A stretch of DNA of 22,322 bases from Psammoneis japonica (taxonomy: Eukaryota): NCBI GenBank assembly GCA_008632985.1, contig QPGO01000005.1, positions 1,199,607 through 1,221,928 on the forward strand, read 5' to 3'. The position numbers and the translations under genes are program-made. Position 1 is the stretch's first letter; every line of letters starts with the position of its first letter. Below are positions 1 through 21,929 of the stretch, one piece after another. The notes under the pieces are model-generated. The model had not been told where the DNA came from and searched no databases. It worked only from the letters and a program-made list of their open reading frames with translations.

Positions 1-2220
1 GATGGCCTGGTGCACTTTTTGTGCAGAAGCTGCACGAGAGCCAAGCATGTGCATTCCTGCACAGACACAGCACAAAAACAGAAAACAGAAAGCATGGCAC
101 GCCCATCAGCGACTCACGACAACACCACGTGATGACCATGCATCAAAATGGCGTCATCTGCATCTTTCTGTGGCTCCTCTTTCACTTGCCCGATTGCCCC
201 AAAAGGGCCAGGGAAAGCTTGCACACTTCTGTCATGATGGATCAATGCAAGCTGAAGTTGTTCTTTTCACTCCACAACATCAGAATGCAGCGCAACAGAT
301 TGTCAAGGCACGCCCGCATGTTGGCTGTGCTGTCAGCCAAATCAACACCATTTGCCATTCGCTCACTTGGCAAATTACAAAGCCAACGACTCTTGTTGGC
401 TGAAGCTCTTGAGCCACTTTTGAGACTTGACACAATGGCCCACTTGTCCCGTTCTTCACCCTCTGTGATTCATCAGAGGCGGCAATGCAGTGTTGCTCAC
501 TTTCCTTTGCAAATTTTGGAACACTGAATTGCACAAAAGTGCGTTGTTGTTGTTCAGCTTCAATTTCAATTTTAAGAGTCAAGTTGAATTTGTTGTTTCC
601 TTTTTGTGTGTGCAATTGTCACCTTTTTGTTTTGATTTAAATTCGCTGAAGACTTTCAACATGTGCTTCATTGTCGAAAAACAAGTTTTGTTTTGACGAA
701 TTTGTCGCACATGTGTCAAAAACCAACGAACCTCTTTTTGCACATGCCTTGTTTGAAGAGTGTCATTTGTGGCAACTTGCAATGATTGGCCAATGGCAAA
801 GGTGGTTGAACTCCATTTGTGCTTGATGCATCAACTTGGAGAGTGGGGGTCTGGGGTGTTTGTGCATTCCTTTGTGCTGCACAAGCCAAGCTGAGCCTCC
901 TGTGTTTGTGAAGGTCATTGTGCAGCTGCAAGGAATGTGTGCTTCATGGGTGGTGGCTTGTCTTCTGGGTTGCTTGGGCAGTTGGGGCATGCCAGCTTGG
1001 ATGGCATGGGAGGAATGGGAGGCATGAACTTCTTTTTTCACACCAGCTCTTCTCACACTGTTGGGAGAGGACCCTGCACAGCAGAGAAGCAGGGGTGCTT
1101 CTAGAAAGGGACAAAGACTGGCCTGGGCTTGCTCTGAGAAAAAAGTTTCTTGAAGCAGAAATGAGCCAGCTTTTTCCCAGCTGGTGTTCTCGGGGTTGTT
1201 CTCCAACTGGTGCAAGTGCTTTGGGCACACCACTTCAATGGCTTCACCACCAGCAAAGCAGAAGCAGTGACAATGAGGTGCCACAATTTTTCTGCACAAA
1301 ATCTGCCCCAGTGCACGTGCATCTCTGTTCGCACTCGAAGTTTTGGACAGCGCGCCTGCCCCATGCTGTTCTCAAAGACACTCGAGAATGGTGCAGAAGA
1401 AAAAAACGCCAAAAGTTGTTGAATGGATCGCCTGACAATTGTGCTGCAAAGCGATGCAAAATTTCTCCAAAATCACTCAGAAATGCACGTGCGCGACATG
1501 CGACGCGATTCAAAAAACTGTCGATGTCACAGTTCAGCAGTGCGAGGTCCCACCCAGACCTGGAGCGTGTCTGCCACGCTCTGCCACAATCTTCCTGCAA
1601 AAAATCCTCCCTCTTGCATTTCCTGGGTGCACTCCCTTCAGCATCTCCGTTCTTGGAGTTCCCTGTCGTGAAGTGCTCCAGGCATCTCGCGCACTTTCGT
1701 GCAAACAAGTCACGTGTTTCCAGGTTGTGAACTGCCTCACAGCCAAAAGAAGCAATCTTTGCCTTTGGAGTCACCATGATGCACTGGTCTGCCAAATCAA
1801 ACTCAGCATCACCATGGACAGTCGGGGAGAAATGTCATCAAAACTGCGTGATGATGTGTTTGAGCTCTTGAGAGCTCACCCAGCTTAAGACATCATGGCT
1901 CCAAGTCGCCGTGTTTGTCGTGAACTCTTCCTGATGCTGTGTCTGTGACTTGGCTTCATCGTTGAATTGCCGTGGCCATCGCACTTCAGAGATGACATTC
2001 TTGACAAGAAAAAGTGTCCCTGGGATGCCTCATGACAACGGAGACCCCACAGAACAAAAGAGCAGTGCAGAAAGAGAAATTGCGTGCAAACCAAACAGCC
2101 ACAAACATGCAAAGCCTCGACAAAACACACAGCACGAATGGCAGCGCACAAGGTTGGTCGTGGCGCAACAGAAGCAACGTTGTCAATGCGAACCTTCAAC
2201 AAGAATTTTTGCCACAATCT
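1..2220 (+). repeat. Tandem segmental duplication, copy 1 (cut by window start; unit ~2313 bp)
   Basis: Matches 2316-4533 at an offset of 2313-2315 (ORFs 242..433 vs 2556..2747; 1423..1671 vs 3736..3984). Ends at ...TTTTGCCACAATCT (2220). Confidence 0.95.
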
Positions 2221-4533
2221 GGTGATGCCGGTTGAGGACGTGCAAAACCAACAATTTGACTGCAATGTAAAAAGTTGACTCCATCATGATGCTCCATTTG
2301 AGAGGGCAGTCTGGAGATGGCCTGGTGCACTTTTTGTGCAGAAGCTGCACGAGAGCCAAGCATGTGCATTCCTGCACAGACACAGCACAAAAACAGAAAC
2401 AGAAAGCATGGCACGCCCATCAGCGACTCACGACAACACCACGTGATGACCATGCATCAAAATGGCGTCATCTGCATCTTTCTGTGGCTCCTCTTTCACT
2501 TGCCCGATTGCCCCAAAAGGGCCAGGGAAAGCTTGCACACTTCTGTCATGATGGATCAATGCAAGCTGAAGTTGTTCTTTTCACTCCACAACATCAGAAT
2601 GCAGCGCAACAGATTGTCAAGGCACGCCCGCATGTTGGCTGTGCTGTCAGCCAAATCAACGCCATTTGCCATTCGCTCACTTGGCAAATTACAAAGCCAA
2701 CGACTCTTGTTGGCTGAAGCTCTTGAGCCACTTTTGAGACTTGACACAATGGCCCACTTGTCCCGTTCTTCACCCTCTGTGTTTCATCAGAGGCGGCAAT
2801 GCAGTGTTGCTCACTTTCCTTTGTAAATTTTGGAACACTGAATTGCACAAAAGTGCGTTGTTGTTGTTCAGCTTCAATTTCAATTTTAAGAGTCAAGTTG
2901 AATTTGTTGTTTCCTTTTTGTGTGTGCAATTGTCACCTTTTTGTTTTGATTTAAATTCGCCGAAGACTTTCAACATGTGCTTCATTGTCGAAAAACAAGT
3001 TTTGTTTTGACGAATTTGTCGCACATGTGTCAAAAACCAACGAACCTCTTTTTGCACATGCCTTGTTTGAAGAGTGTCATTTGTGGCAACTTGCAATGAT
3101 TGGCCAATGGCAAAGGTGGTTGAACTCCATTTGTGCTTGATGCATCAACTTGGAGAGTGGGGGTCTGGGGTGTTTGTGCATTCCTTTGTGCTGCACAAGC
3201 CAAGCTGAGCCTCCTGTGTTTGTGAAGGTCATTGTGCAGCTGCAAGGAATGTGTGCTTCATGGGTGGTGGCTTGTCTTCTGGGTTGCTTGGGCAGTTGGG
3301 GCATGCCAGCTTGGATGGCATGGGAGGAATGGGAGGCATGAACTTCTTTTTTCACACCAGCTCTTCTCACACTGTTGGGAGAGGACCCTGCACAGCAGAG
3401 AAGCAGGGGTGCTTCTAGAAAGGGACAAAGACTGGCCTGGGCTTGCTCTGAGAAAAAAGTTTCTTGAAGCAGAAATGAGCCAGCTTTTTCCCAGCTGGTG
3501 TTCTCGGGGTTGTTCTCCAACTGGTGCAAGTGCTTTGGGCACACCACTTCAATGGCTTCACCACCAGCAAAGCAGAAGCAGTGACAATGAGGTGCCACAA
3601 TTTTTCTGCACAAAATCTGCCCCAGTGCACGTGCATCTCTGTTCGCACTCGAAGTTTTGGACAGCACGCCTGCCCCATGCTGTTCTCAAGACACTCGAGA
3701 ATGGTGCAGAAGAAAAAAACGCCAAAAGTTGTTGAATGGATCACCTGACAATTGTGCTACAAAGCGATGCAAAATTTTACCAAAATCACTTGGAAATGCA
3801 CGTGCACGACATGCGAAGCAATTCAAAAAACTGTCGATGTCACAGTTCAGCAGTGCGAGGCCCCACCCAGACCCACAGCACGTCTGCAGCGCTCTGCCAC
3901 AATCTTCCTGCAAAAAATCCTCCCTCTTGCGTTTCCTGGGTGCACTCCCTTCCGCATCTCCGTTCTTGGAGTTCCCTGCTGTGAAGTGCTCCAGGCATCT
4001 TGCACACTTTTGTGCAAACAAGTCACATGTTTCCAGGTTGTGAACTGCCTCACAGCCAAAAGAAGCAATCTTTGCCTTTAGAGTCACCATGATGCGCTGG
4101 TCTGCCAAATCAAACTCAGCATCACCATGGACAGTCGGGGAGAAATGTTGTCAAAACTGCGTGATGATGTGTTTGAGCTCTTGAGAGCTCACCCAGCTTA
4201 AGACATCATGGCTCCAAGTCACCGTGTTTGTCACAAACTTTTCCTGATGCTGTGTCTGTGACTTGGCTTCGTCGTTGAATTGCCGTGGCCATCGCACTTC
4301 AGAGATGACATTCTTGACAAGAAAAAGTGTCCCTGGGATGCCTCATGACAACGGAGACCCCACAGAACAAAAGAGCAGCGCAGAAAGAGAAATTGCGTGC
4401 AAACCAAACAGCCACAAACATGCAAAGCCTCGACAAAACACACAGCACGAATGGCAGCGCACAAGGTTGGTCGTGGCGCAACAGAAGCAACGTTGTCAAT
4501 GCGAACCTTCAACAAGAATTTTTGCCACAATCT
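2221..4533 (+). repeat. Tandem segmental duplication, copy 2
   Basis: Starts GGTGATGCCGGTTGAGGACG (same as 8090) and ends TTTTGCCACAATCT at 4533, after which the sequence differs from copy 1's continuation. Confidence 0.95.
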
Positions 4534-5096
4534 GCCCATGCAAACGTGGGTGTTCTCAAGCTTGTCTCGTGTGAGATGACACAATTGCACCGAGCTCCAT
4601 TGAGAGCATCCAGGTTCCAACCTCAGAGACAATCGCATTTGTCAATTTGGCGAAACGCCATTGTCCGTGCCATTTTGTGTGTCATTTTGAGCCGTGAGCC
4701 AGAAAACACTCCCAAAAACTGCTCTGCAGGGCAAAATGTGCTGAACCTGCACAGGTTTGGGTTGCACCAGGCCGCGCAGAAAGTGAGCGGGCCAAAAACT
4801 CCGGCGCACCCACCCAAACACATTCAACAACTGACTGACAACAGACTGGTTGACTGGCTTCCCAAGGCACCACTTGCATTGTGCCCTTCCCCAGCTGCTC
4901 TCCAGCTGGCACCGTGGAATGCAGTCATTTAATTTAGATTGTGTCTGCAACATCATTTGCAACAAACGTGACTGCCGCTTTTCACACATTGTCTGCCAAA
5001 CAGGTGTTGGCTCCAGCTCATGTGTCTCAGTGCAACCCACCATGTGGCTTTCCTCATCCCCCAACCCACTGCCCCCCTCCTCCACTTTCCTGTCAT

Positions 5097-5215
5097 GCTC
5101 TGCCACAATCTTCCTGCAAAAATCCTCCCTCTTGCATTTCCTGGGTGCACTCCCTTCCGCATCTCCGTTCTTGGAGTTCCCTGCCGTGAAGTGCTTCAGG
5201 CATCTCATGCACTTT
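5097..5215 (+). repeat. Dispersed partial copy of 1578-1697 / 3891-4010
   Basis: GCTCTGCCACAATCTTCCTGCAAAAATCCTCCCTCTTGCATTTCCTGGGTGCACTCCC... recurs; the minus-strand peptide HFTAGNSKNGDAEGSAPRKCKREDF is shared. Confidence 0.9.
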
Positions 5216-5281
5216 TCTCTCCTTTGCCCCACGTTCTTCATTGGGCAGGTTCTTGTTGTTCTGCAGCTCTGTCGTGACCAG

Positions 5282-6004
5282 CAAAATGGCCAAGGGCACA
5301 AAATCAAAAAGGACAAAAAATGTCTGTTGAGGGCACCAAATCACAAAGGGCACAAACCAGGCAGGGGCAAAAAATTGCTGAGGTCACAAAATGACTGAGG
5401 GTGCAAAATGGTGGCTGAGGGCACAAAGCTGCCAAGGGCAAAAAATCAGAAAGGGTCCAAAATGGCAAAGGGCACAAAACCACAATGGCCAAAAATTGCT
5501 GAAGGCACAAAATCATGAGGGGCACCAAATGCGGCTGAGGGCCCAAAGCCAAAAAAGGCACAAAATGGACAAGGGCACAAAGTCACAAAGGGCGCAAAAT
5601 GGCCAAGGGCACAAAACCACGAAAAGCACAAAATGCTCAAGGGCGCAAAAAAAGGAAAGGGCGCAAAACAGCCAAGGGCACAAAAAGGTCAAGGGCACAA
5701 AATCAAGAACTGCGCAACATGACTGAGGGCACAAAATCTCAATGGTGCAAAGTGGCCAAGGGCACAAAACAAAAAATGACAAAAAATGGGAGTTGAGGGC
5801 ACAAAATCACAAAGGGCACAAACTTTCCTGGGGCACAAAAAAAATCACTGAATGGAGTGAGAGTGCAAAATGGCAGCTGAGGGCTCAAAGTTGCAAAGGG
5901 CGCAAATTGGCCAAGGGCAGCGCAAAAGGCACAAAGGGCACAAAGTGGCCAACGGCAAAAAACCAGGAAGAGCAAAAGTGCAAAGTGGCCAAGGGCACAA
6001 AATC
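5282..6004. repeat. Degenerate minisatellite with core AGGGCACAAAA, spacing ~16-20 bp
   Basis: Dozens of GGGCACAAA/GGGCGCAAA cores joined by recurring short linkers (TGGCCA, TCACAA, TGACTG). Confidence 0.9.
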
Positions 6005-6429
6005 ATGAATGGAAAAATGGCGGTGGCAGCGGCAGCAGTTGTGCCACCCTTGTGACTCAAGATGTTGTCGCAGCTGCCCTCACGCTGTCATTGTTGCACT
6101 TTGCAAAAAAGCCAAGATGCAGTGTGCGAGGGGACAAATCGGTGAAATCCGTCTCTGCATCATGGGGAAGCCCATTTGTCCCCCATGATGCGCTCATCCT
6201 CGGCTCTGCATGTCGGGGGTCACAGCATGTTGGGTGAGCATGTCAACCTCTCTCCCCCAACACGCCATTCCCGTGCCATGCACGCTTTTGTTGACATGCC
6301 ACAGAAGCCATTTTGCTTGGCCTGGCTTCATCATGAGTGTTCTTTGATCCACAGCTGCAGGATGTCACCCTTTTTTGTGGCGTCCTCTTTTGTTGCTGAT
6401 GTGTCCACTCCACGTCAGCTCCATTTTTG

Positions 6430-6662
6430 TGGGCGCGACGCGTTCCAGGTCCAGGTGGGACCTCGCACTGCTGAACTGTGACATCGACAGTTTTTTGAAT
6501 CACGTCGCATGTCGCACACGCAGATTTGCGTCATTTTGCGGTGCACTTGTTGAGCGATCCATCCAACAACTTTTGACATTTTTTGTTGCAGCGCGATTCT
6601 ACAATGTCTTGAGAATGCGTGGGGCAGGTGCACTTGCAAAAACGTTGAGTGGCAAGAGGCAC
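6430..6662 (-). repeat. Inverted, diverged copy of 1315-1575 / 3629-3890
   Basis: GGGACCTCGCACTGCTGAACTGTGACATCGACAGTTTTTTGAATC at ~6457 is the reverse complement of ~1508-1552. Peptide WDLALLNCDIDSFLN appears in ORF 6375..6722(+) and ORF 1244..1795(-). Confidence 0.9.
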
Positions 6663-7100
6663 AATTGCACCACAAACTTGGCCGTTCATTTGATGTTGAA
6701 GACAAATGTGTCCATCAATTAATTCTGCTGCGGAGCTCGCACGCAGAATTCTGTGGGCCCAATGTCACACGGAGTCCCGCCTGGTGCTGGAGCGCATCGC
6801 GCATGCCTCCTCGTCTCCTTCCCTTGTGTTGCCGTCCGTGCCACCGGCGCTGCACTCCATTCTGCCCAAACACATGTGTTGTTTGAAGCAACAAACCCTG
6901 CTCTGCTTTCCCAAGGCATTTGCGGCAGTTGTCCCATTGGCTTTGCTCCAGTGCCCCCAGCGCCAAACACTTGCACCACAAATCTTGTTTGATCAGTGCC
7001 CTTGCCAGCGGGCTGTGTCCCTTCAGTGCCCCCCTGCAACACGCGGCGGGTCATGTGCAAAGATTGTCCTCGATTTAAAGACGCCTTTGGAGCTTCATGG

Positions 7101-7440
7101 AAGTGCGCAAATGCACAAGTGCGCAAACGCAGAAGTGCAAAAATGCAAAAATGCAAAAATGCGAAAAATGCGGAAATGCAAAAATGCAAAAATGCGGAAA
7201 TGCGGAAAGCGAAAATGCGGAAATGCAAAAATGCAAAAATGCAAAAATGCTGAAATGCGGAAATCCGAAAGTGCAAAAATGCGAAAATGCGAAAATGCGA
7301 AATGCAGAAATGCAGAAATGCGAAAATGCAGAAATGCAGAAATGCAGAAATGCAGAAATGCAGAAATGCAAAAATGCAAAAATGCGGGAATGCAGAAAAG
7401 CACGAAAATGCAGAAATGTGGAAATGCGAAAATGCAAAAA
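7101..7440. repeat. 8-bp tandem repeat (AAATGCRR)n, about 40 units
   Basis: AAATGCAA/AAATGCGG/AAATGCAG/AAATGCGA units in mostly 8-bp phase. Confidence 0.95.
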
Positions 7441-7491
7441 GGGCCAGGGTTGGGGTCAGGGTTGGGTTTGGGGCTGGGGTCAGGGTTGGGG
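7441..7491 (+). repeat. Degenerate interstitial telomere-type array derived from (TTAGGG)n, 8 hexamers
   Basis: GGG CCAGGG TTGGGG TCAGGG TTGGGT TTGGGG CTGGGG TCAGGG TTGGGG. The 6-bp phase is exact, and the TA position is TG or CA in every unit. Confidence 0.8.
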
Positions 7492-7494
7492 TTT

Positions 7495-8104
7495 GTCTCT
7501 GAATCTTTGGCACATGACATCTTGTCTGTCAACATGACAATGTTTTTTGTGTGTTGGTTTCATGACAAGGTGCTGTGCTCAGCAAATGTCCGCCAAAGTG
7601 CTGTGGCGGTGTTTCAAGCTCAAGACGAAATTGGTTGGAGACAGATTTTTGATGGGCGCTTCTCATCTTTGTGGAACAAAGCTCAGCCATCATGCTCGCT
7701 GTCAGCTGGATTGTGCCGCTCCTTGTCGAACATGGAAAAGCGCTCAGATTGGGCCGCTGCGATTGGCAGTTTTGTGTGGCCCCAATGGCGGGAACTCTCC
7801 ATGACGGCACTGCACATGGGCACAATTTGGGCACAAGAAAGTCCTCACAGCACCATGACGCCAAGGCCGAAGCACGAGCCATCCACTCCAAGGCAGACAT
7901 TGTTCAGCTTGCAATGGATCCGAGTTGCTCAGCTCAGCGGAGGAGCACCTCACTTGTTTGACCCACAGGTTGCACAGCTGGTTGGCCATGGCTCAACCAG
8001 TGTTCAAGTCAAGCATCCACGAAGCCTGGCATCTGGCAGCGAGGGGCACTGGCGCCACTGCAAGTTGTTTTGGCACAACATCACCTCAGGGTGATGCCGG
8101 TTGA
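7495..8104 (+). mobile_element. Decayed 3' end of a non-LTR retrotransposon ORF2 (diatom-type, possibly Ambal-like)
   Basis: AQDEIGWRQIFDGRFSSLWNKAQ...WAAAIGSFVWPQWREL, then after frameshifts HGHNLGTRK...ARAIHSK and EHLT...LHSWLAMAQPVFKSSIHEAWHLAARGTGATASCF...GDAG* (TGA 8102-8104). Matches, from memory, the Q-x2-IGW-x5-GR-x-S-x2-W...W...RN..HG...I.SYF C-terminal pattern of such elements. Confidence 0.7.
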
Positions 8105-10308
8105 GGACGTGCAAAACCAACAATTTGACTGCAATGCAAAAAGTTGACTCCGTCATGATGCTCCATTTGAGAGGGCAGTCTGGAGATGGCCTGGTGCACT
8201 TTTGTGCAGAAGCTGCGCGAGAGCCAAGCACGTGCATTCCTGCACAGACGCAGCACAAAAACAGAAAACAGAGAGCATGGCACGCCCGTCAGCGACTCAC
8301 GACAACACCACGTGACGACCATGCATCAAAATGGCGTCATCCGCATCTTTCTGTGGCTCCTCTTTCACTTGCCCGATTGCCCCAAAAGGGCCAGGGAAAG
8401 CTCGCGCACTTCTGTCATGATGGATCAATGCAAGCTGAAGCTGTTCTTTTCATTCCACAACATCAGAATGCAGCGCAACAGATTGTCAAGGTGCGCCCGC
8501 ATGTTGACTGTGCTGTCAGCCAAATCAATGCCATTTGCCGTTCACTCACTTGGCGAGTTACAAAGCCAACGACTCTTGTTGGCTGAAGCTCTTGAGCCAC
8601 TTTTGAGACTTGACACAATGGCCCACTTGTCCCGTTCTTCACCCTCTGTGTTTCATCAGAGGCGGCAATGCAGTGTTGCTCACTTTCCTTTGTAAATTTT
8701 GGAACACTGAATTGCACAAAAGTGTGTTGTTGTTGTTCAGCTTCAGTTTCAATTTTAAGAGTCAAGTTGAATTTGTTGTTTCCTTTTTGTGTGTGCAATT
8801 GTCACCTTTTTGTTTTGATTTAAATTTGCCAAAGACTTTCAACATGTGTTTCATTGTCGAAAAACAAGTTTTGTTTTGATGAATTTGTTGCACATGTGTC
8901 AAAAACCAACGAACCTCTTTTTGCACATGCCTTGTTTGAAGAGTGTCATTTGTGGCAACTTTGCAATGATTGGCCAATGGCAAAGGTGGTTGAACTCCAT
9001 TTGTGCTTGATGCATCAACTTGGAGAGTGGGGGTCTGGGGTGTTTGTGCACTCCTTTGTGCTGCACAAGCCAAGCTGAGCCTCCTGTGTTTGTGAAGGTC
9101 ATTGTGCAGTTGCAAGGAATGTGTGCTTCATGGGTGGTGGCTTGTCTTCTGGGTTGCTTGGGCAGTTGGGGCATGCCAGCTTGGATGCATGGGAGGCATG
9201 GGAGGCATGAACTTCTTTTTTCACACCCTGTGGCTGGCGGTGCCTCTCAGCAAAATGGCTGCAGATTGAGCAAATGCAGACACCCGTGCAGTGTTTCTAA
9301 ATTGCCTTTTTGTCTCTGGCTTTGGTGCAAGAGTGCACTCCCGTTGCCCAGCCAACTGTTGGGCACTGACCAAGAGTGACCCCCTCAACACTCCACTGTC
9401 CACAGATGAGTTGGGAAACTCAGAAAAGCTTGCCTCCACATCAACCTGACTGGGGCTGGAGTTGGGAGAGCCTGGCAGACCTGGAGACATGAAAAAACTC
9501 TTGGCTGGGGAGACTGCCTTGCCAAGCATTTGTGTGCTTTTCCTTCCAATGTGCGATGGAGACAACTGCAACACCCTGGCTGTTTTGGCTGGAGCTTGGC
9601 CAGCTCTCAACCCAAATGGGGAAAAATCTGCTTGAGCAGGAGAAGCTGACAGCCTGCCAAGGTTGGGAGGTGCAGAGCAGGTGCCTGTTGCTCTGCTCAC
9701 CATTGCAAGAGTGCCCCTTTGGTGCTGATCAAAACTCCATCCTGTCAAGCAAAAGCTTGGGCTGCACAAACTGAGAAAAGAAATCTTGCTGCTCTGGGGC
9801 TGGGCCATCATGCCCATCCTCAGGTTTGCTGTCTGAGGAACTCATGGTTGAGATGAGCAAGGTGCTCAAAAGTGTTGGTTGTGTTGTGAGGGCTGGAGTT
9901 GAGAGTTTCTGTTGAAAATGAAAATTTGGGCCGCCACGTCCGGCAGGTGGGTCAGACTTCCTTTTGCAAAAATGCAAAGAACAGAAAAAAGCTGCCAAGT
10001 TGAGATGGAACTCACCAAGCAGTGCTTGCACTGGGCTCAGCTCTTCTCGCGCTGTTGGGAGAGGACCCTGCACAGCAGAGAAGCAGGGGGGGCTTCTAGA
10101 AAGGGACAAAGACTGGCCTGGGCTTGCTCTGAGAAAAAAGTTTCTTGAAGCAGAAATGAGCCAGCTTTTTCCCAGCTGGTGTTCTCGGGGTTGTTCTCTA
10201 ACTGGTGCAAGTGCTTTGCGCACACCACTTCAATGGCTTCACCACCAGCAAAGCAGAAGCAGTGACAATGAGGTGCCACAATTTTTCTGCACAAAATCTG
10301 CCCCAGTG
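8090..10308 (+). repeat. Third, more complete copy of the duplicated segment, with ~810 bp (9228-10037) absent from copies 1 and 2
   Basis: 8090-9227 aligns to 2221-3358 and 10038-10308 aligns to 1044-1313. It diverges from copies 1 and 2 after CTGCCCCAGTG. Confidence 0.9.
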
Positions 10309-11323: not shown

Positions 11324-11640
11324 GGGGAAATCTGACCTTGTTTCATGACATTGCATGACGTTTGCCATGGTCCATGGTGTGCCAGAATCTGACATTGTGT
11401 TGGTGACATCAGCAGTCATGTGGAAACAGCATGAAAAATGAGCAACAGAGGGAAATCTGACCTTGTGTTGTGACATTGCATGACGTTTCACTGTGGTGAG
11501 CCAGAGCCCAACATTGTGGTGGTGACATCAGCAGCTGCATGAGAACAGTGGGAAAAACAAGCAACAGAGGGAAATCTGACCTTGCGTCATGACATTGCAT
11601 GATGTTTTGCCATGGTGAGCCAGGGTCTGACATTGTGTGG
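11324..11640. repeat. ~120-bp tandem repeat, about 2.6 units
   Basis: AAATCTGACCTTG..TGACATTGCATGA starts at 11328, 11453 and 11572 (spacing 125 and 119). Confidence 0.9.
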
Positions 11641-12552
11641 CACAGGCATCCCCACCGTGGCCACCGACGACGCCACTTTCCTGCATCTGCAGGCTGTCCG
11701 CAGCAATGCTGATCCTGCAGAAGCGTGCTGCAGAAAGCACGACTCCCAGTGCGAGACCTGCAATGGGCCACAGGAGTGACCCACATGACTGAGACCTGTG
11801 CAGCTGGCCATCGCGCAAGTGGCTTGCCTTGTGTGAAGGGTCTGCGCAGGATGCATGCAGCGCCAAGCATGAGCCTGTGAATTGGCTCCGCATGAGCATC
11901 AATCAAGTGTTGCAAAAGACTCAGGCTCAAATCTTTCCAATGACTCATCATGTAAAAAGAACTCCCATTTCTTGGAAAAAGACACCATCGTGCATCTGCA
12001 CTCTAGCCAGCTAAAACAATCTCACAATTTTTGCACACACACAAAACAAATCTCCATCTCTGTGGTTCAAGTGCTTGTCCCCCATTTCTGCATGGGTCAA
12101 CTGCAGCCATGACATTGCAGCATGTGTCAAAATGGGGGGGAAGTGATTGCCAACTGCCAAGGTTTCATTGCAGCCAACACAAGCCATGAAAACTCTCATC
12201 TAAAATGAGGGCATGCTTGCTGAAATGTCCAGACAGGAACACATCAAAATGTGGCTGTTGATTGGAAAAAGTTTTGTGTGACATGGCCAAGTGGAGATGT
12301 GTCAACATGAGGGAGGTTTGGGAGTGAAGTCACTTGAGACGGTGCTCCCCTGACATGGACACCCAACATGAGGGACTCCCTTGAGATCAAGTCCCTTGCA
12401 ATGGAAAAACACCCTCAAACTGTGAAAAGTCTGGTTAAACCCATTTCCTGTGTGCTGCTGAGAGATGGGGAAAGCCAGTCCGCTGTCTCAAGCATTTGAG
12501 CCAGACACCAAACCAAGTTGCTGCATTGAGTGCAAAGGGACCCCTCCAAGCA

Positions 12553-12950
12553 ATCAAGTGGCATGTGGGCACATCATTTGCAGTGCTGCATCCAGACTTT
12601 ATGAGCTGCACAAGAGGGGCTGTGACCACAAGCAATGGAGCAGTGCAGGCTGCATTGAAACACCAGAAGCTGAGCACCCAAAGCAGCACAGAGGCTGAAC
12701 TTGTGGGAGTCAATGATGCAATGATGATGACTCTGTGGATGAAGTTGTTGTTCGTGGAGCATCAGGTGCATCTAATTGACAAGAACAATGTCCTGCATCA
12801 AGGCAACAAGAGTGCTGGGCCATCAGAAGCTGCAATCTCAGAGCACAGCATTGTCCAGCCAATGACGTGCTTGTTGGAGTCCTCTTGACTGAGAAACCAT
12901 TGCAGGGCAAGAAGTTTTGAAAGCTCAAATGAGACATTGCGGGCTGTTGA
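12553..12950 (+). mobile_element. Decayed Ty1/copia (CoDi-like) pol RNase H C-terminal fragment
   Basis: IKWHVGTSFAVLHPDFMSCT...QKLSTQSSTEAELVGVNDAM..TLW..LF.EHQVH...NVLHQGNKSA, then QHCP..D......KPLQGKKF*KLK*DIAG. Recalled copia consensus: WYVDASFAVHPD.KSHTG...KQKLNT.SSTEAELV..DD......W...F.E.QGY....ILYQDNKSA...EYCPT.EM..DF.TKPLQG..FRKFR..I.G. Confidence 0.92.
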
Positions 12951-15900
12951 CTTTGAGCATGACAAAAGCAGCTCCTGTTTGTGACATCAGACAAGAACTC
13001 CGATGCACGTGGGCAAAAGATCCCTGCAACCCAGAAAGGGTCATGAGCCACACAGTTCAGCCAGCTGCACTTCAGAGCATCATCAGCCATGAACAAACTT
13101 GGATGAAAATGAGTTTGCTTTGCAGCACAACAGTGTGGTGGCCCAGCAATGGCTGTGGGACTGCTGCTCTGGAGCAAGTTTCACAAACTTGCAGACTTGG
13201 CAGGAGATGAAAGATGAGTGGTTGTGGACAAGGATCATTGTGGCAGAGCATCAAAAGAGCCAATGAAATGGATCAGAAGCAGCAAGATGAGGTTGACTCA
13301 ACCCATGTCTCCACCATGATGTCACAGACCTGTCTCATGTTCTGGGAGACATCATTGATGAAACAAAGAGAGACTCTGCAGACACACCTTCCTGTTGGCT
13401 GTTGGGGGGGAACCAGGCAATGCTTTGGTTTTGTGGCAAGACCCGCAGATGAATGGGTGCCAGTTGATGAAGGAGGTGGACAAGGAAATGCAATGAGAGT
13501 GGAGTCTTGAAGTGCACAAATGTGTGTCTGCTGTCACACCAATGTTCTCCATCCACAATGATCTGAGGAGAGCATCTGAGATTCAACATCATGATTGCAA
13601 AGCACACAAAGACCAAAGAACATTGGCAAATCATGGGAGGCCAAGCCGGGGGGCAAGATGAGCTGTGTTGTTGCAGACAACACAATGATGGCAAGGAGCA
13701 CATGAGAAATGAGTGCGCCACCAGATCAATGGACAATGAGTGTTGCAGCTGGCCCTGGAAAAGAGCAACATCTGTGACCCATGCAAGATGTTGAGCATCA
13801 GTTTTCCCACCTGTGGTGCAGACAAATGTGGAGCATGTGGTCCCTTTGTGGGTTGTTCTGCTGTGGAATGGAGTTCTTTGATTTGACTCCTGAGATGGCC
13901 AGCGGTTGGATTGTGGACCTGATTGATGGCTCAAACAGCAAAGTTGCAAAAGAGGAGATTTTGTCATGCTTGTGTGGAGCATTTTGTGGAGTGTGTCACC
14001 CTTGTTTGACTGCATGGTTGATCACTCTGATGATGGGCAGCGCACCAGCTTGCACATTTCTGAGTTGCAGGGTGTCAGCTGCAGGGCAAGAGGTGAACAT
14101 GACACCAACTTGCTTGGTCACTGCACCAGATGGATCTGTTTTCCTCAATGTCAGCCAGACCTGTCTGGCCAGCAAAACATTGATGCAAGTGGCAAGAGTG
14201 CATTGGAAGGAGCCTGGCTTTCTCTCAGATCACCATGGCCAATGTTGAGCTCCCGGGGCCTGTCTTTTTGAGTGGCTTGACTGCACTGGCCCACAGCCAT
14301 TGTTGTCACACTGGCACCACTGTGCTGCACAGGCATTGTTTCAGAAGGCAAAAAACAATGTGTGCTGCTTGGTGTGGTGAGTGAAATCAAATTGTCTGAT
14401 TTGTGCTCATGCTTTGTTGCACTGGAACTCTGTCAATGGGCCAAAGAACAGGCACTCCTGCTGGGTGTTGTAGGGTGCTCACTCAAGATCCAACAGCCCC
14501 CCTGTTGTTGTTGACAGCACCATTTGTCGGCTTGTGACTGAGTGCATGTTTAAAAGTGGCATGACCAGCTGCTCTTCACTGCTCTCTGATGGTCTGTTTT
14601 GTCCAAGTTGGCAACAAACAGACACAGGAGAGGATGACAGCTGCAGCTTGGTCACACACTGCACCCACACTCAGCATCAGATTGATGTGCCAAGCGGCAC
14701 ATGCAGAGCTCTCGTCCTTTCAAATGGTCTTGCCATGTGGCAACTTCCTGCCTCTGCAGATTTGGAAAACAAGGGGACACTGGGATGGAGCCACCCAGCA
14801 TGTGCACAAATGCTGGTGGCAACTGGCATGACAAATTGTGCCCCGAGCTGCAGCACTTCAATCTGATGAGCTGCCATCACCTGCCACCTGCTCCTGGCCA
14901 AGGCTGTCAAACTTAAAATGCTGGTGCAAAATGGCTCCTCCTCCTCATGTTTCAAACAGCTGACACCACCTGTGGCAGAGCTGCAATGAGCACAGTGTGA
15001 CCCTGCCAAAAAAGTCTCAGATGCTGGCACGCCAATGTCCACACTGTTGTTTGATGACAGAAGCCCTCCCACTTTGGCAAACAACCTCAGAGCACTTTGC
15101 AGAGATGCAGCCAGCCAGCTTGCTTTTTGACAAATGTGTCTGAGTTCAAACCAGTGGCACTCACACTGCAAGCTGAGGAAAGTGGAAAAATTGGGACAAC
15201 TCCACTGTGTGAGAAAGAAGTGCACTGAAATCTGCAAAAGCAGGCAATTGCTGCAACCATGTGTGGCTCTTGGAGCCTGGCAGGTTTTGCAATCTTTCTT
15301 GTGTTGTTCTGTTTTTTCAACATTTTCAAAAAGCCACATCATGGCAAACCTTCAAGAACCTGCCTGGAAGGTTCAATGCCATTGTGCAATGAGCTGTGGC
15401 CAACACCATTGCTTGGCACTCCTCTCTTTCTGTCAACCACACACTTGGCAGAACATTCCTCTGGGCCCTTGATTTCTCAGCTTTGTGGCTTTGCAAACTT
15501 CCAAATTTTGATGCCAGCACCAGCACCATGTTTGCTCTCCAATGGGAACTGTCATGTCAGGATTTGGCATCATTGCTGAAACAAAGTTGTCATTTTCATC
15601 AACCCAGACAGACAAGAAAGGAAGGTGGGCACATTCCATCCCCAGCCAACTCAAAAAAATGGTGGGAGGGGTGCCATTGACCCAGTGCTTGTGCAGCAAT
15701 GGCATGGGCATGTGGCCTTTGCAGCTGAGTGCAAGAGAAAAAGGCTCACTTTCATGGCAAGCACAGTTCTTCTTCAAGCTCTGGGAGGCATTTTCCCCTG
15801 TCATTGCTGTGCAGGAAATCCCAGCATCAGCAGCACGGGGTTTGCCCCCAAAGTGTCAGCAAGCACTTCAAACCCAGTGTGTCAGCAAGCACTGTTGAAG

Positions 15901-16980
15901 TCACTGCCACATTGACTGTGCATCTCCAGTTTGGAGAGAACTTCTCTTGAAGAGAGCCTGATGCTGGCAAGTTTGACCTTGGGAAAACCTGCACATGCCC
16001 CACGGACACTGCCACCTTGATGATGCACTCTCTGGCCGTGCTGGAAGAAGATCCCAATGTCTGTGTTCCAAACGTTGGTGAATTTGAGAAAGGCACTGTG
16101 ACAAAATGAAGGCATTGCAGACTTTGCAGACTGCCATGATCTGCTTGCTTCAGTGCCCATGTGTCATGACAATTGGCGGTGTGACACATCTGCATCAAAG
16201 AAAGCAGAGCTGAGAAGCCATCAACCAAAACAATTCATTCATGATTTTTTTTAGAAAAGAAGAGCTGAGCATGCCAAAAGTGGCAGTGCTGTGCAAGCAG
16301 CACTTGGTCTGTCTTTTGTGCCAGAAGCTCAGCTCAGGGAGAACAAAGGAGATTTTTGGAGGTGTGCCAAAGTCCCTGACTGGCTCAAACTCCATGATCA
16401 AGTTCTCTGTCCATTTGCAGGTTGGCCAAGAAGGTGTCACAAAGCATGCATCTTTGAAGATCCCGCAAAGGATGGCATGGTTTTGGGCAGCTGCTCTTTC
16501 AAAAGAAATTGTCTGAGCCACTCAGATGTGATGGCATCTTGGTTGGGCTGCTGTTGCACCACTGATGATTGTGAGGTTCTGTGGGCTCTCCTCATGCTTG
16601 CGCACAAAGTGGGCAACACTGTTTGCTGCATTTGTGTTCTCTTTAGAACAGCAAAAACACAAGACAACTGCAGAACAATTTTCTTGGGACAAAAAAATCT
16701 TCTGTCCAAATCTCAGGTGGAAGTGGCACTCCTTGTCCACCAGAGAATGGCAGGGGAACAGAAAAAAGAAAGTGCCTTGGCTGCACCCATTTTCCAGTGG
16801 AGCATGGAAAGAATCCAAGAAGTGACATCTGAGCTGCTCACAATGACATGTGTCCCTGCAGGGGCCAGCCATGAGAAACTTTGACCCATGTCTGTTTGAC
16901 CTTGATCACCGCTGCTGCACACCAAAGGAGTCAATGGTCACGGCCCATCTCTGAGGATCAAAGGCATGCTGGGCAACATG

Positions 16981-17150
16981 AAAGTGAAGGCTTGTTCCAA
17001 TCATGGGTGCAACTGCTTTGGGAGTTGGCCAAAGGCATTGCTGGGGTGCTCCAGCTGCAGAAAGACCATCACTGCTCAGCAGACTGCCAGGTGAAAGACT
17101 GGAAAGAGGGTGGCCACAAGAAAGCATGTAGAAAGAAAGAGCAAACTGCA
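16981..17150 (+). pseudogene. Decayed MYND zinc-finger gene fragment; upstream ORF 16291..16884 is in frame with its N-half and may belong to it
   Basis: KACSNHGCNCFGSWPKALLGCSSCRKT, frameshift, then HCSADCQVKDWKEGGHKKACRK. Fits MYND pattern C..C...CxxC....YCSxxCQxxxW...HKxxC with the conserved Tyr read as His (CAC 17070-17072). Confidence 0.85.
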
Positions 17151-17669
17151 CGCCAACACGTTCATGAGAGCAGCTTTCCTTGCTTCATGACAATGACAAG
17201 CAACAACCAATCATTGCAACTCTCATGCTTTTGTTTCCACCACGATGTGTGAACTCATTTGCAGAACCAAGAGATGTGCTTTAATTCTCTTGCTTCCAGC
17301 TTCAGTGGTGAGGCTTTCTCCAATCTTGCTGCAGAGCCAGATTGAATTTGGACCTGTCCACAGATCCGTCTTCACCAGCTTGGCACACTCTTCAGGTGCA
17401 AGGAACAACTTTTGTCTGCCAAACTGACGCACAGTGCTTGCATCCAAACATGTCACAAATGGCATTGCCAGGCACTTCAACACTGGGACAATGATCTGTT
17501 CCTGGCTCTGAGGGGGTCAAAGTCCACATTTGTTGTCAAAACGCAATGACACCCTCACAACGTCAGACAGTTGAGCAATGCAATCCATTCAATTGCTGTT
17601 CCCTCACTCAAAAAAACAAGCACCCCTGTGCCATCTAAGATCCCTGCAATCAATCTGAAAAGACTTGGC

Positions 17670-18125
17670 GCACCTTGTGATCCAGGCGGACATCCAGCAC
17701 CCTTCTGTGTGGTTCAATGCCATTCAGCTCTTGAGCGGCATTCTCCACATTGCTCTTCTGATGGAGTTGTGTGGCACCAAATCCTTTCTTCCTGCCATCT
17801 GTGGTCTCCATGACTTTGGCTCATTTCACATTGCCACATGTCCCAAAGTGATCCTTGAGATCTTGCCAAGTGGTGCTGCAGGAAAGGTTTCCAACAAAAA
17901 GTTGGAAACCGCTGCTGCCACCACCATGTCCTCTGCTTTGGTGTCCACCTTGAGAATGTCCACCACTGCCTCCAAATTGGTTTTGGTCTTCACAAATGGA
18001 AATCTCACATCCATTGAGCTCTGAATTCTGAAGCTCACAAATGGCCCTTGCAGCCTGTTGTGGGTGCTGACAAACAACAACTCCACAACCAATCAAACGT
18101 CCATCATGGTCACTGAGCATTGATG
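17670..18125 (-). pseudogene. Decayed fragment of a Gbp2/hnRNP-M-like multi-RRM RNA-binding protein gene
   Basis: GRLIGCGVVVCQHPQQAARAICELQNSELNGCEISICED, Gly-rich linker, QLFVGNLSCSTTWQDLKDHFGTCGNVK*AKVMETTDGRKKGFGATQLH...AAQELNGIEPHRRVLDVRLDHK. RNP2/RNP1 motifs are present, and the frame continues through an in-frame TGA (17821-17823) where Arg is expected. Confidence 0.88.
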
Positions 18126-18360
18126 CCTGCATTTGCAAAGAGATGCAGAGGCACCAGGTTCAGCAACCTCAAAACAAACAAAACAAAGTTGCAATGATCA
18201 TTGCCTGTGAAACCAACCTGGTCAATGTTTCCAGCTGCATGCATGTGATCTTTTAGAGTCTGCCAGTGTGCATTGCAGGGCAGGTTCCAAACATGCCCTG
18301 AAGTCCCCTGACAACAGCCTCCGCCATTGCAAAAGCCACCAGTTGCTCCACTGCTTGTCT

Positions 18361-19330
18361 CTCAGTCTTGCCATCCACTGCAGTTTCTTGAAACTCACAT
18401 GACCAAATTGTTGGTGGCATTTTAGGAGTGGTGATGCCCCAGCAGTTCCTTGGTGGTGCTCTTCATCCTTTGCCACCATTGGTGGCTCAGAGACTTTGTC
18501 CTGCACCACAGTTGGTTTGAGGTTGAACTTGGCAAGTTGTCCATGTCTCCCTCATGCTTGCCACTCATCTTTGGTCTGTCTGAGTCAAAAACTGCTGCTG
18601 TCAAAAACTGCTGCTGTGGACCCATCACCTTTCCCAGGAGCCAACTCTGAGTCTTGCAATTGGTTTTGGCCTGTGGGTTTTCATTCTCTGTGCAGCACTT
18701 GCATTTTCTCCCTCAGCCTTGTCTTGGTCCTCATTGTCACTTGCAGTGGTGGCCTCTTTGGCAGGTGCAGCATCCTTGACTTTGTGCACTGGGTCAATGT
18801 CAGCCTTGGCACAGAATGCCTTGCACATCTGATGTTGTGGTTCCAAGTGAAATGTTGCCACATTGCTCATCTCACTCACTGGCACAGGTCGGTGTTTCTT
18901 CTGGCTCATCCAACAGAGGGCACCTGCTTTGAGTCAGTCTTGCTGCCAGCCCCTCTTCTCTGAATTTGTCATCCCACTGGGTTTTAGCCCGGTGTTGAGG
19001 GCTGCACAACGTGACCTTCCTGCTTGGTGAGCAAAACAAGTTTGGCATCTTGAGCTTGTGTGCTCCACCTTCATCATCATTGCACCTCTTCAGCAGGGTG
19101 CTGACCTTGACTCCTGTTGCTTGAGAACCATCTGAAACCTTTTGTGGTCCTGTTGCAATCTTGCAGTTCACAGATGAAGTCTTCTGCACAATTGGATGTG
19201 CAACCTGCAGCCTGATTGTCAACTCTGACTGGTCCAGAATCAGTGTCAAAGGCCACTGTGTGCTCCAAGATGCTCTTGTGCTGAGCTTGCATTGCCGCCA
19301 CAACCACAGCCAATGCTGCGGCACAATGTC
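18361..19330 (-). mobile_element. Decayed Ty1/copia (CoDi-like) polyprotein fragment: protease region to GAG-pre-integrase
   Basis: Across frameshifts: VAFDTDSGPVRVDNQAAGCTS..AEDFI.EL.DCNRTTKGF, VKVSTLL...DDEG.AHKLKMPN.....KVTLCSPQH, SNVATFHLEPQH...AFCA, LLKCHQQFGHVSFKKLQWMARL. These match recalled FDTDS..IG.DN, LLSPQHW, NVATF and H.RFGH.SF.KL..MA motifs. Confidence 0.85.
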
Positions 19331-19764
19331 CTGATTGCTTTGGGCTCTTGAGCTTGTCTGTGGACTGGCAGAGTCTTTGGATCCCCCCTCTTCTGTGCAA
19401 GTCAGCTTCAATGGAGTGCGCAACTGGCAAATGCAATGGGCAATTGACTTTCCTCAAACATCAGGAAACTGGCATGAGAACACCTCAATCTGATTGGATG
19501 ATTGGCTTGCAAGACACAATGAGAGGGAGTGTGAAGATTGTCAAATCATCGTGACAGTCATTGTGCCTCACCATTTTGATGACTTGTGTCATCAGGGCCA
19601 GCATCATTCAAAACACTCCAAAGAGAGGATGCACTGCATGCAGTCTCTAGAGAGCTTCCTCTCCTTACAATCTCAATTTAGTCGCTGCAACACCAGCACC
19701 TGGAACCACCCCAATTGCCCCAATGTCCTTTGTTCATCACCACACTTTCTCTGTTGACTTTGCT

Positions 19765-20593
19765 CTGGACATCACAACACTTGATGGCCCATCAACATTG
19801 GGTCTTGTGTGTGAGTGCAGCAAGAGTCTGGCATTGTCTGGCATGGGTCAAATCACAATGCTTGCAAATGATGATGCCAAAACAGGGCCAGAAGATGTGC
19901 ACCACAACAAAGAGCTGGACAACTCAGGTCGGGGATGTTAAAAAGCTGCTCAATCAGCCAGGTGTTGAGGTGGAGGAGGAGACTGATGAGACTGATGTTC
20001 TTGTGAATTGTTTGCATGGATTGAACCCTTCTGTTTGTGTTTCAAAAATGATTGGATCACAATTGAAAGAGAGACAAGATGCAGAGGGTGGGATGCTTGC
20101 ATGCATGGATCACCCAAACTCCACTCAAATGAATCTGAACTGTGTTTGCCGTGAAAAGAGCATGCCTTTTGTTGCCTCAAAGACTGCAGGCATGTGCGGA
20201 TGCACATTTTGTGACTTCAGTCCCCCTTTGTTTCAAGCAGTTGGCTCCAATGGTGAAACTCCACTCATCATGCCGCCAGGTCATGTCAAGACAGTGGGAG
20301 ACAAGCCAAAGGTTGGATGTCTCAAGGGCAAAAAACATGATGTTTCCAAGGGTGGCAAAATTGTTTTCTGGCTTGGGAATGGCAGCAAGAAGATGCCAAG
20401 TTGTTGCATGGTGATGGGCGCCCTCAATCTAACAACTTTTGCCACTCTGTTGGAATCAACTGAGGGAGTCCCAGAGACTGACCTGGTCAACAAAATCAAT
20501 GACAATGCACCATGCTTCAGCCGAGCTAAAATTCTCACCTCAAAAAGTTGCATTCAAGCTGCTGGAAAAAGGGGGACAAATCTGCGGATCTGA
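19765..20593 (+). pseudogene. Decayed ubiquitin-activating enzyme E1 (UBA1/ThiF-family) N-terminal fragment
   Basis: GLVCECSKSLALSGMGQIT (cf. G...E.AKNL.L.GV), frameshift, then L.GLNPSV.V and LNCVCREKSMPFVASKTAGMCGCTFCDFSPPLF....NGETP (cf. N..CR.....F......G..G..FCDFG..F...D.DGE.P of UBA1). Confidence 0.75.
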
Positions 20594-21929
20594 CTCTGTC
20601 CATTTTGTTCCCCGGCACTGTGTGAACAGACCAGGTGGCTGCCAATGCATTGTGCGAAGTGGAGGCATCAGAGCCAGCCAGAAAAGAGAAAAAAATGGAG
20701 TTGAAACCAGAGCTGGAACCCCCACCACAAAACGTGGTGGGGGCCCATGCTGGAATCAAAAACAGTCAAACAGGTCAAATTGAGTCATGACACCACATCA
20801 TGCGTGCATCTCCAAGAATGGCCATGACAGCAGTGAACCCATCCAATGAGGTTGAGGCTTTTGAACAAATGCTGGCACACTGTCATGAATGTGGGCAGTT
20901 GTGTGCCATTGGCGATTGGTCCACTGTTGCTTGTTTGGTGGTCCCAGCAGCATGGCATCTCACAATTCTAGAACCTGTTGATGCTGTTCAACACTCTGTT
21001 TTGTCTTGCACCCAATTCTCAGCTGTCATGGCAGCATTTGTTCACTTCATCAGAGCCAATGCACTGTGATGTTCATCACCTGGAATGGGCATTGTGAACA
21101 GTGCAACAGTGTTGTTGCGATTGATCAATTTTTGTGGTGAGTGCCATGTTGGTCCCATGGTTGCTCACACAATCGCTGAGTCCTTTACATGCGTTGATGT
21201 TCATGCGCATGAATGACATGCTCCAGGAGGCCAGAGCTGCAATCCGTTGGACATGACATTGAGAAATGAAATGTTTGATCCCATGAATGGAGTGTGCAGG
21301 CTAAGACATGCAAACATGCATGAGAGAAGGTTGACATGACAATTCATGTGTGGAGGTCTGTCATTTGACCATGTGCATTTGTTCAAGCAGAATCCGTTGA
21401 CATGACACCTGCACACTGCACATGTGGATGCATGCCTGTTGGAAATTGTTGCTCAGAAGTCACCTTGCCTGCTCGCAGGTTCGCTGAGCAGAAATTGCCA
21501 AAGCGACACAAGAAACACACAAATCTCCTCTCACACAAGTGCATCAGAGTGCACGAAATGTCAAAAATGTGAAGATTCACACAATGACAATTTGTCGAAA
21601 TGTTGCAAAAAATTGTTGTCATGCAATGACAGGCCAACCTCTGGTCACAAGTTTGCTGTGCCAACACTGCAATGACTTGCCAAGAATTGTGTGTGCCATT
21701 TTTCACTGTGTCCACATCACTGCATCTGCCTCCACCTTGTTGCCATGTGCCAATGCATGGTTGCATTGCCGCACAATCCTTGGTTTGTCAATTTTTGCAA
21801 ACATCATTTTAAACAAGAAAAGCATTTCATCGGTTGGGTCAATCCCTTGTTGCATCTGCAGTGCAGTGACCGAGTGCCATGTTAACTGTGCACACATTTT
21901 CTTGCTGCAACTCTCTCAAACCAAGCCAA

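Follow-up and report, generated by a model that had tools for sequence, protein, structure and literature searches.

Integrated viral and other foreign DNA of the alga Bigelowiella natans is hypermutated from TpA to TpG/CpA, according to the main text of the preprint by Mettrop et al. (bioRxiv 10.64898/2026.01.13.699255). In mutation-accumulation lines of B. natans, 231 of the 302 nuclear mutations are located in two integrated viral regions, A→G or T→C accounts for 230 of these 231, and every such GC-biased change is on TpA. As given in the same text, the B. natans genome contains 124 clusters of 1-kb windows that are depleted in TpA and enriched in CpA+TpG, and a subgroup of its coding sequences (CDS) that is low in TpA has a TpA frequency of 0.0018. 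An ADAT2 homolog is proposed by the authors as the enzyme. The words "context", "flanking", "trinucleotide" and "tetranucleotide" do not occur in the main text of this preprint, and its Fig. 2B and supplementary tables may hold information on flanking bases. A literature search for further cases of extreme TpA depletion or of hypermutation at TpA gave only this preprint, and gave nothing for dinoflagellates. Here a stretch of 22,322 nucleotides from Psammoneis japonica (contig QPGO01000005.1 of assembly GCA_008632985.1, positions 1,199,607 to 1,221,928 of the forward strand), hereafter termed the window, is analyzed. The window is depleted in TA throughout its length, and the few TA dinucleotides that stand in it have strongly non-random flanks. 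The underlying phenomenon is already described in the preprint, and the specificity footprint is what is added here.

The exact count of TA dinucleotides in the window is 60, corresponding to a ratio of observed to expected (O/E) of 0.04. Approximately 96% of the TA dinucleotides are gone to TG/CA, and the TpA frequency of the window is 0.0027, as compared to the above value for the low-TpA CDS subgroup in the B. natans text. The O/E values of the CA, TG, CG and GC dinucleotides are 1.72, 1.82, 0.30 and 1.29, respectively. Among the NA dinucleotides only TA is depleted, with O/E values of 1.36 for AA and 0.90 for GA. The rho(TA) and rho(TG+CA) values are 0.00–0.09 and 1.56–2.03 in all 22 full 1-kb bins, and 0 and 1.48 in the final bin of 322 bases. 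The depletion is even along the window, and no tract boundary is located inside it. All of the 22 full bins fall within the thresholds for the B. natans clusters, where the rho formula used here may differ slightly from the published one. The window thus matches the published dinucleotide signature, and it resembles the B. natans clusters, as they are described in the preprint's main text, both in the loss of TpA with gain of CpA+TpG and in that most of the sequence is unannotatable. The depletion is far deeper than that given there for the active nucleocytoplasmic large DNA virus (NCLDV) region of B. natans (Rho 0.45). The NCLDV and virophage regions of B. natans retain 6169 and 2300 TA, respectively.

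Repeat-induced point mutation (RIP) of fungi, which is described as turning CpA into TpA and thereby enriching TA, is similar to the process seen here in that dinucleotide-specific transitions at the DNA level ruin repeated or foreign DNA and produce a strong dinucleotide skew. However, the direction is opposite, with TA at an O/E of 0.04 and CA/TG at 1.7–1.8, and in the window the depletion is as strong in unique sequence as in repeats. Methylation-deamination decay of CpG also feeds TG/CA (the O/E of CG falls from 0.30 overall to 0.03 in single 1-kb bins), but this decay is a separate process on the other self-complementary YR dinucleotide and is unable to remove TA. The rho(CG) value per 1-kb bin ranges from 0.03 to 0.70, being 0.03–0.32 for 9–21 kb and 0.23–0.70 for 1–9 kb. 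Because the loss of CpG is uneven and that of TA is uniform, the two decay processes are uncoupled bin by bin. The most over-represented tetranucleotide and trinucleotide of the window are TGCA (O/E 4.18) and TGC/GCA (2.25), which are the leftovers expected from conversion of TAC to TGC, GTA to GCA and TATA to TGCA. As a result of the scarcity of TAA and TAG, stop-free frames of at least 90 amino acids are plentiful (116 over the six reading frames), but these do not represent genes, and nearly all of them match no Pfam family. Gene callers would therefore over-predict open reading frames (ORFs) in such TA-poor tracts.

The flanks of the 60 TA dinucleotides were counted as NTAN tetranucleotides. 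YTAR accounts for 43 of them (TTAA 20, CTAA 9, TTAG 8 and CTAG 6), 16 have one flank that is G or C (TTAC 6, GTAA 4, CTAC 3 and GTAG 3), and one, at position 12600, is TTAT. The remaining seven NTAN tetranucleotides, including RTAY and the other tetranucleotides with ATA, are absent. These exact counts agree with those of an earlier note on this DNA, which had read approximately 60 TA, 43 YTAR, 16 TTAC/GTAA or CTAC/GTAG, one TTAT and no RTAY or ATA from the letters, and the seven positions that it named as examples of YTAR sites are all correct. One hundred dinucleotide-preserving shuffles of the window were used as a control. The shuffles contain 19.46±3.99 YTAR, and none of them reaches 43; they contain 10.56±3.07 RTAY, as compared to 0 in the window, and 24.99±4.66 ATA/TAT, as compared to 1. 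The claim that sites exposing TAY on both strands never survive therefore holds.

Ten of the 60 TA dinucleotides are duplicates within three repeat copies, and their removal leaves 50 non-redundant sites, for which the background was likewise made non-redundant. Two expectations were used for these sites, one from flanking-base frequencies and the other from the product contexts NCAN+NTGN. YTAR is found at 36 of the 50 sites, while 16.2 and 11.4 are expected, respectively; RTAY is found at none (9.3 and 12.3 expected). A single site bears ATA/TAT, as compared to 19.1 or 21.1 expected, with a binomial p of 1e-9 to 5e-11. These results confirm that the flank bias of the remaining TA is far beyond chance and is independent of the repeat duplication.

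The bias is not limited to the nearest neighbors. When each of the 50 sites is split into two half-sites T-A-N1-N2-N3, one per strand, 100 half-sites are obtained, for which expectations were taken from product-site contexts. At N1, A is observed 55 times (21.7 expected), G 31 times (22.7), C 13 times (31.9) and T once (23.8), so that TAG is comparatively spared, as the earlier note had stated. At N2, the numbers are 68 for A (25.4), 12 for G (23.1), 13 for C (27.5) and 7 for T (24.0), and at N3 A, G, C and T are observed 45, 14, 10 and 31 times. The bias at +2/−2 is at least as strong as that at +1/−1, and the N1 and N2 effects both remain when each is conditioned on the other. TA-R-A is found at 56 of the 100 non-redundant half-sites, where 10 are expected, and at 67 of the 120 half-sites of the whole window, as compared to 18.89±3.36 in the shuffles, none of which reaches 67. 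The consensus of the survivors is T-Y-TA-R-A, as in TTTTAAAA and TTCTAGAA, the standing TA being almost confined to T-rich/A-rich junctions such as TTTAAA, and the motif reaches ±3 as TA-R-A-W. The motif YTAR proposed earlier is therefore right in that the flanks are strongly non-random and TAA is least affected, but it misses the extension to ±2 and ±3. The explanation by chance or base composition, according to which the NTAN survivors mirror the flanking-base frequencies, finds nothing in its favor and is refuted for the window: none of the 100 shuffles reaches the observed number of YTAR or TARA, and a background null fitted on the 10 reverse-complement NTAN classes is rejected (G 81.8, 9 df, p 7e-14). 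Survivors in proportion to their background, which the earlier note had named as the outcome that would contradict it, are not seen.

Both halves are TARA at 14 of the 50 sites, exactly one half at 28 and neither half at 8, while 15.7, 24.6 and 9.7 sites are expected if the two halves are independent. The TARA status of the two halves therefore fits independence.

Changes of TA to TG/CA are seen in one repeat copy and in a gene fragment. A unit of approximately 2.2 kb is present in copies A, B and C (Table 1), which differ from one another mostly by CG as opposed to TG/CA. Six TA families are common to copies that differ by 2–3.5%, so that these TA are older than the duplication. The TA differences among the copies consist of one clear loss (510), one clear gain (3758), two that are unpolarised (4079 and 10199) and one that is complex (3778). 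At 510 in copy A, TA is changed to CA, while copies B (2824) and C (8693) retain TA in a GTAA context. At 3758 in copy B the sequence is CTAC, and because both copy A and a diverged inverted copy have G, this TA is newly made by G→A. Since A and B are sister copies, the differences of copy C cannot be reliably polarised by majority. The inverted copy, which is approximately 74% identical to the 1332–1571 part of the unit and serves as outgroup for 3758, is located at 6437–6651; its divergence indicates that older generations of the 2.2-kb repeat are present in the tract. The earlier description of the TA as survivors thus applies to the six families that pre-date the duplication, but not to 3758.

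The gene fragment encodes part of a protein with multiple RRM domains and is the only gene recognized in the window. It matches only the two C-terminal RRMs of proteins of 400–600 amino acids, with a best identity of approximately 52%, and its few named homologs are from diatoms. The 155-residue fragment contains no Tyr, 7 Cys and 9 His, whereas the means of 52 homolog segments are 3.4, 2.5 and 4.3, respectively. A Tyr that is present in 118 of 120 aligned homologs is replaced by TGT in the fragment, residue 4 of the upstream exon is His (CAT) where 111 of 111 homologs have Tyr, and residue 10 of this exon is Cys (TGC) where 87 of 120 have Tyr. Relative to the homolog consensus, Arg is changed to Cys three times, to Gln twice and to a stop once, with an in-frame TGA where the homologs have Arg. 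These Tyr and Arg changes indicate that TA→TG/CA and CG→TG/CA really occurred in the tract. The depletion is not a property of functional genes, because such genes need Tyr codons. The A→G or T→C changes on TpA that can be seen here, namely one polarised TA→CA and three well-conserved Tyr codons that became TGT, TGC and CAT, are too few for a spectrum, and the recent copy differences are mostly at CpG.

The changes in the RRM fragment also bear on the explanation that TA is present in the DNA in modified form and is systematically misread, so that the survivors are unmodified TA. Systematic miscalls at modified motifs do occur on some sequencing platforms. However, nothing direct was found in favor of such an artefact here, and CpG decay, the in-frame stop and the changes of Arg to Cys and Gln in the fragment point to real degeneration. 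In addition, the conversions are divided between TG and CA, and contigs built from exact 31-letter words of a sequencing run contain 0.85 of the sampled words, where this run may be the source data. It is the one DNA run found to contain the window, and no RNA run is listed for it. An artefact is therefore very improbable.

The gene content distinguishes the window from the B. natans regions, which are of viral or transposon origin as far as the preprint's main text describes them, since the only recognizable gene here is an intron-bearing RRM pseudogene. The RRM fragment is a host-type piece of a gene within a hypermutated tract, and is neither viral nor transposon DNA. As regards foreign origin, tandem and dispersed repeats are present, and the sole real Pfam match is RRM_1. 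A Pfam search of 25 ORFs, 116 frames of at least 90 amino acids and 150 of the 156 frames of 50–89 amino acids outside the redundant copies gives RRM_1 only, the rest being below the curated cut-offs. No deaminase domain is found in the Pfam-scanned frames of the window, and no Rfam match is found in the window at the gathering thresholds. A search for the contig of the window with its flanks gives no match among viral contigs, nor in one scan of metagenome contigs.

The contribution of loss and creation to the flank bias was analyzed by fitting models on the same 10 NTAN classes. Multiplicative survival of half-sites fits the counts (G 3.3, 6 df, p 0.77), with s values of 1, 0.65, 0.22 and 0.018 for A, G, C and T. 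An equilibrium of loss and creation with unbiased origin of TA also fits (p 0.39), with relative loss rates of 1 for A, 2.3 for G, 9.9 for C and 178 for T. The best fit is obtained when creation at dipyrimidines is combined with loss (Akaike information criterion 161.2 vs 163.1), with rates of 1 for A, 1.9 for C, 2.3 for G and 51 for T. The near-total removal of ATA/TAT is thus robust across the models, while the greater loss at TAC than at TAG is model-dependent.

These models are relevant to the explanation by creation bias, in which the old TA are nearly all gone, the standing TA are mostly new, and YTAR/TARA reflects how TA arise, namely by C→T changes of the last base in pyrimidine runs (T-Y-C-A→T-Y-T-A, or T-G-R-A→T-A-R-A on the other strand) as a result of dipyrimidine (UV-type) damage or run-extension errors. 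A model of dipyrimidine creation accounts for the absence of RTAY (log likelihood, lnL, −91.1 vs −117.8 for the null), at least one TARA half is found at 42 of the 50 sites and exactly one at 28, a mixture with one obligatory TARA half fits as well as independent halves, and the TA at 3758 is new by comparison with the outgroup. However, the counts reject creation by itself (G 28.3, 9 df, p 8e-4), because it predicts approximately 13 ATAR/YTAT sites, of which only one is seen, so that loss specific to TAT/ATA is still needed. The TA at 3758, which is the sole one proven to be new, arose by CTGC→CTAC and not at a dipyrimidine, the six TA families are older than the repeat duplication, and 8 of the 50 sites have no TARA half. 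Furthermore, the base at −2 is not any pyrimidine but specifically T (68 of 100), with C under-represented at this position (12, where 23 are expected). The model fit rejects dipyrimidine creation as the only cause, and creation bias as the source of the flank pattern is considered unlikely.

The strand on which a site is hit can be deduced from the products, because on conversion of a TA the half-site that was hit follows TG and its partner follows CA. TG·AA is found 203 times and CA·AA 460 times, and the share of TG is lower in contexts with higher survival (15 N1N2 contexts, Spearman −0.63, p 0.011). Pairwise contests between half-sites were made for the products in non-redundant, satellite-masked sequence. 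In these, TAA loses to TAC (330:177 = 1.86, TTGC vs TCAC), TAG (272:175 = 1.55) and TAT (348:249 = 1.40). TAC is hit in preference to TAG (324:226 = 1.43, CTGC vs CCAC), while TAT equals TAG (209:211 = 0.99, CTGT vs CCAT) and falls behind TAC (199:252 = 0.79, GTGT vs GCAT). The ranking by products is therefore TAC ≥ TAT ≈ TAG > TAA. The four polarised events agree with this order. In the change of G-TA-A to G-CA-A at 510, the TAC half is hit rather than the TAA half; in the three Tyr codons, C-TAC→TGC shows that TAC beat TAG, T-TAT→TGT that TAT beat TAA, and G-TAT→CAT that TAC beat TAT. The last event contradicts TAT as the strongest context. TAA, above all TA-R-A, is thus the poorest context by every test, and TAC is a good target. 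The earlier proposal that TAY is the preferred substrate, most strongly TAT, is borne out for TAC; its second part is true of the survivors only, since the product ratios and polarised events disagree with it. Duplex nearest-neighbor stability was also considered for the ranking and rejected, because the stability values predict TAT>TAA>TAG>TAC, an order that is not observed.

Sites with T at +1 (A at −1) vanish wholly without a matching strand bias, so that this flank may speed the loss on both strands. Seen from the target on the opposite strand, T at +1 would be A at −2, giving A-T-A. The behavior of these sites, which suggests effects on the whole site, and the near-palindromic survivor motif of at least 6 bp, as expected of a factor that reads the duplex, are in accord with protection, in which all TA are attacked equally and T-Y-TA-R-A is shielded by a DNA-binding factor, a base modification that recognizes this sequence or the unusual shape of the T-run/A-run junction. 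However, the halves act independently and not as one palindromic site, the difference between TG·AA and CA·AA is a strand-specific component that is not predicted by whole-site shielding, and there is no direct evidence of such a factor. Protection is therefore improbable.

The footprint can be compared with the contexts of known enzymes. TadA acts on tRNA-Arg(ACG) only, and the natural substrates of ADAT2/3 are the tRNAs for Ala, Arg, Ile, Leu, Pro, Ser, Thr and Val, as described in PMC11802342; UACG had been named as the TadA target in the earlier note. The footprint is like that of TadA/ADAT in that the target A follows T/U, a picture that T→C in the complementary TA would also produce, and TAC as a good target fits the UACG context of TadA. 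According to the genetic code, position 35, which follows A34, is never U in the eight ADAT2/3 anticodons, and seven of them have a purine (G or A) there. This is the reverse of the pattern in the window, in which TAG and TAA are spared and TAT is most fully removed. The anticodon-loop contexts of ADAT2/3 are UAG/UAA/UAC, with UAG/UAA in seven of the eight tRNAs. Amphioxus ADAT2 (BjADAT2) favored 5'-GAA-3' for deamination of A in E. coli DNA, according to PMC10354150. This preference is unmatched in the window, where GA is not depleted. As a whole, the footprint does not reproduce the 3' context of the natural or reported substrates of TadA/ADAT. ADAR favors a 3' G (UAG) and acts on double-stranded RNA. 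This preference does not fit either, since TAG is comparatively spared here and the changes are fixed in DNA. The 5' U preference of A→G hyperediting by ADAR is mentioned in the main text of the B. natans preprint (bioRxiv 10.64898/2026.01.13.699255). The footprint is thus reproduced by none of the enzyme contexts compared, namely those of TadA, ADAT2/3, ADAR and amphioxus ADAT2. Adenine as the substrate stays an assumption, because A→G on one strand is T→C on the other in duplex DNA.

Taken as a whole, the reading that we prefer, with a probability of roughly 0.6, is that the window represents repeat-rich, mostly non-coding eukaryotic nuclear DNA, in a tract at least 22 kb long, that is subject to TpA-directed loss, and that the flanks of the standing TA show the context dependence of this loss. 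In this tract a TpA-directed transition process (TA→TG on one strand, seen as TA→CA in its complement) would be nearly complete, and ordinary CpG decay would run alongside it. The standing TA would represent a balance between this loss and slow re-creation by ordinary mutation, so that their flanks would report how the loss depends on context. TA with A on its 5' side or T on its 3' side (ATA/TAT) would essentially never be left, GTA/TAC would be left at reduced frequency, and TA at a T-run/A-run junction (T-Y-TA-R-A) would be lost most slowly, with the two half-sites acting as independent contributors. The flank bias probably stems from the specificity of the mutator, the lesion may be deamination of adenine, and the process may be the same as that in B. 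natans.

Several points weigh against the TpA-directed loss as formulated here. The survivors make TAT by far the most vulnerable context, but the strand-of-hit counts do not, and this mismatch indicates that a simple model based on the 3' neighbor of A is incomplete. The product pools themselves are diluted by native and CpG-derived TG/CA. The combination of dipyrimidine creation and loss, which fits slightly better, removes the preference of TAC over TAG. A mixture with one obligatory TARA half (lnL −48.72) fits as well as independent halves (−49.18), at the cost of one extra parameter. At least one standing TA, that at 3758, is new. The sample of 50 independent sites from one window is small. 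Finally, no viral or transposon Pfam family is detected at E≤0.001 in 266 frames of the window.

If the TpA-directed loss is accepted, a more specific proposal can tentatively be made, namely that the mutator reads at least 6 bp, erases TA where A and T alternate (ATA/TAT) and where G or C adjoins (GTA/TAC), and largely skips T-Y-TA-R-A. Such a specificity would be unlike the deaminase contexts compared, and the agent would possibly be a new DNA-editing enzyme or else something other than an adenine deaminase, such as chemistry that acts on the T of TpA.

The coordinates of the features are shown in Table 1.

Table 1. Features of the 22,322-nucleotide window (positions are those of the window)
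Feature	Position	Strand	Remarks
Continuous tract depleted in TpA and enriched in CpA+TpG	1..22322	none	From 1-kb bins; neither boundary in the window
Remaining TA dinucleotides (60, of which 50 independent)	376..21884	none	Consensus T-Y-TA-R-A
Repeat copy A, tandem with copy B	1..2221	+	98.06% identical to 2316-4534 (41 mismatches in 2221)
Repeat copy B	2316..4534	+	Four TA absent from copy A: 2824, 3758, 3778, 4079
Repeat copy C, interrupted	8185..10308 (8185-9227, 10038-10308)	+	96.6-97.8% identical to A and B
Degenerate short-period repeat, GGGCACAAAA-like	5281..6020	+	CA/TG-rich words, no TA
8-nt satellite, GCAAAAAT-like, at least 32 units	7084..7450	+	CA/TG-rich words, no TA; masked in k-mer controls
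Second exon of broken multi-RRM gene fragment	17671..18126	-	RRM_1, E 3.4e-10; in-frame TGA at read-through residue 105; no Tyr
GT..AG intron of RRM fragment, 91 nt	18127..18217	-	Junctions agree with homolog alignment
Upstream exon piece of RRM fragment	18218..18304	-	Conserved Tyr now His (CAT) and Cys (TGC)

The interruption of copy C at 9228–10037 consists of approximately 810 bases that are not present in copies A or B. It is TA-poor like the rest of the window and contains one TA (9298). The right end of the window (21900–22322) is richer in CpG, with a rho of 0.64 in the last 322 bases, and is still without TA. It contains an open frame of 160 amino acids on the minus strand, for which the Pfam matches are only sub-threshold. 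The sequence may here be nearing a region that was treated differently.

TpA-specific DNA hypermutation first became known in 2026, from one alga, and the flanking-base footprint is the cheapest discriminator between the candidate enzymes. The footprint predicts that oligonucleotides are ranked TAT/TAC > TAG > TAA, with TA-R-A most resistant. According to the footprint, an ADAT2-type activity as proposed for B. natans would have to prefer contexts that differ from those of its tRNA substrates and of the amphioxus enzyme. The footprint also provides a search pattern that is sharper than dinucleotide skew, consisting of near-absent ATA/TAT, persisting TTYTARAA and TGCA in first place among the tetranucleotides. 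The value of these results, which come from one window and 50 independent sites, is that of a testable lead, and the specificity is not settled by them. If a mutator that reads at least 6 bp is indeed responsible, the motif of the survivors would serve as a signature by which to find the agent and to detect the same genome-defence process in other eukaryotes.

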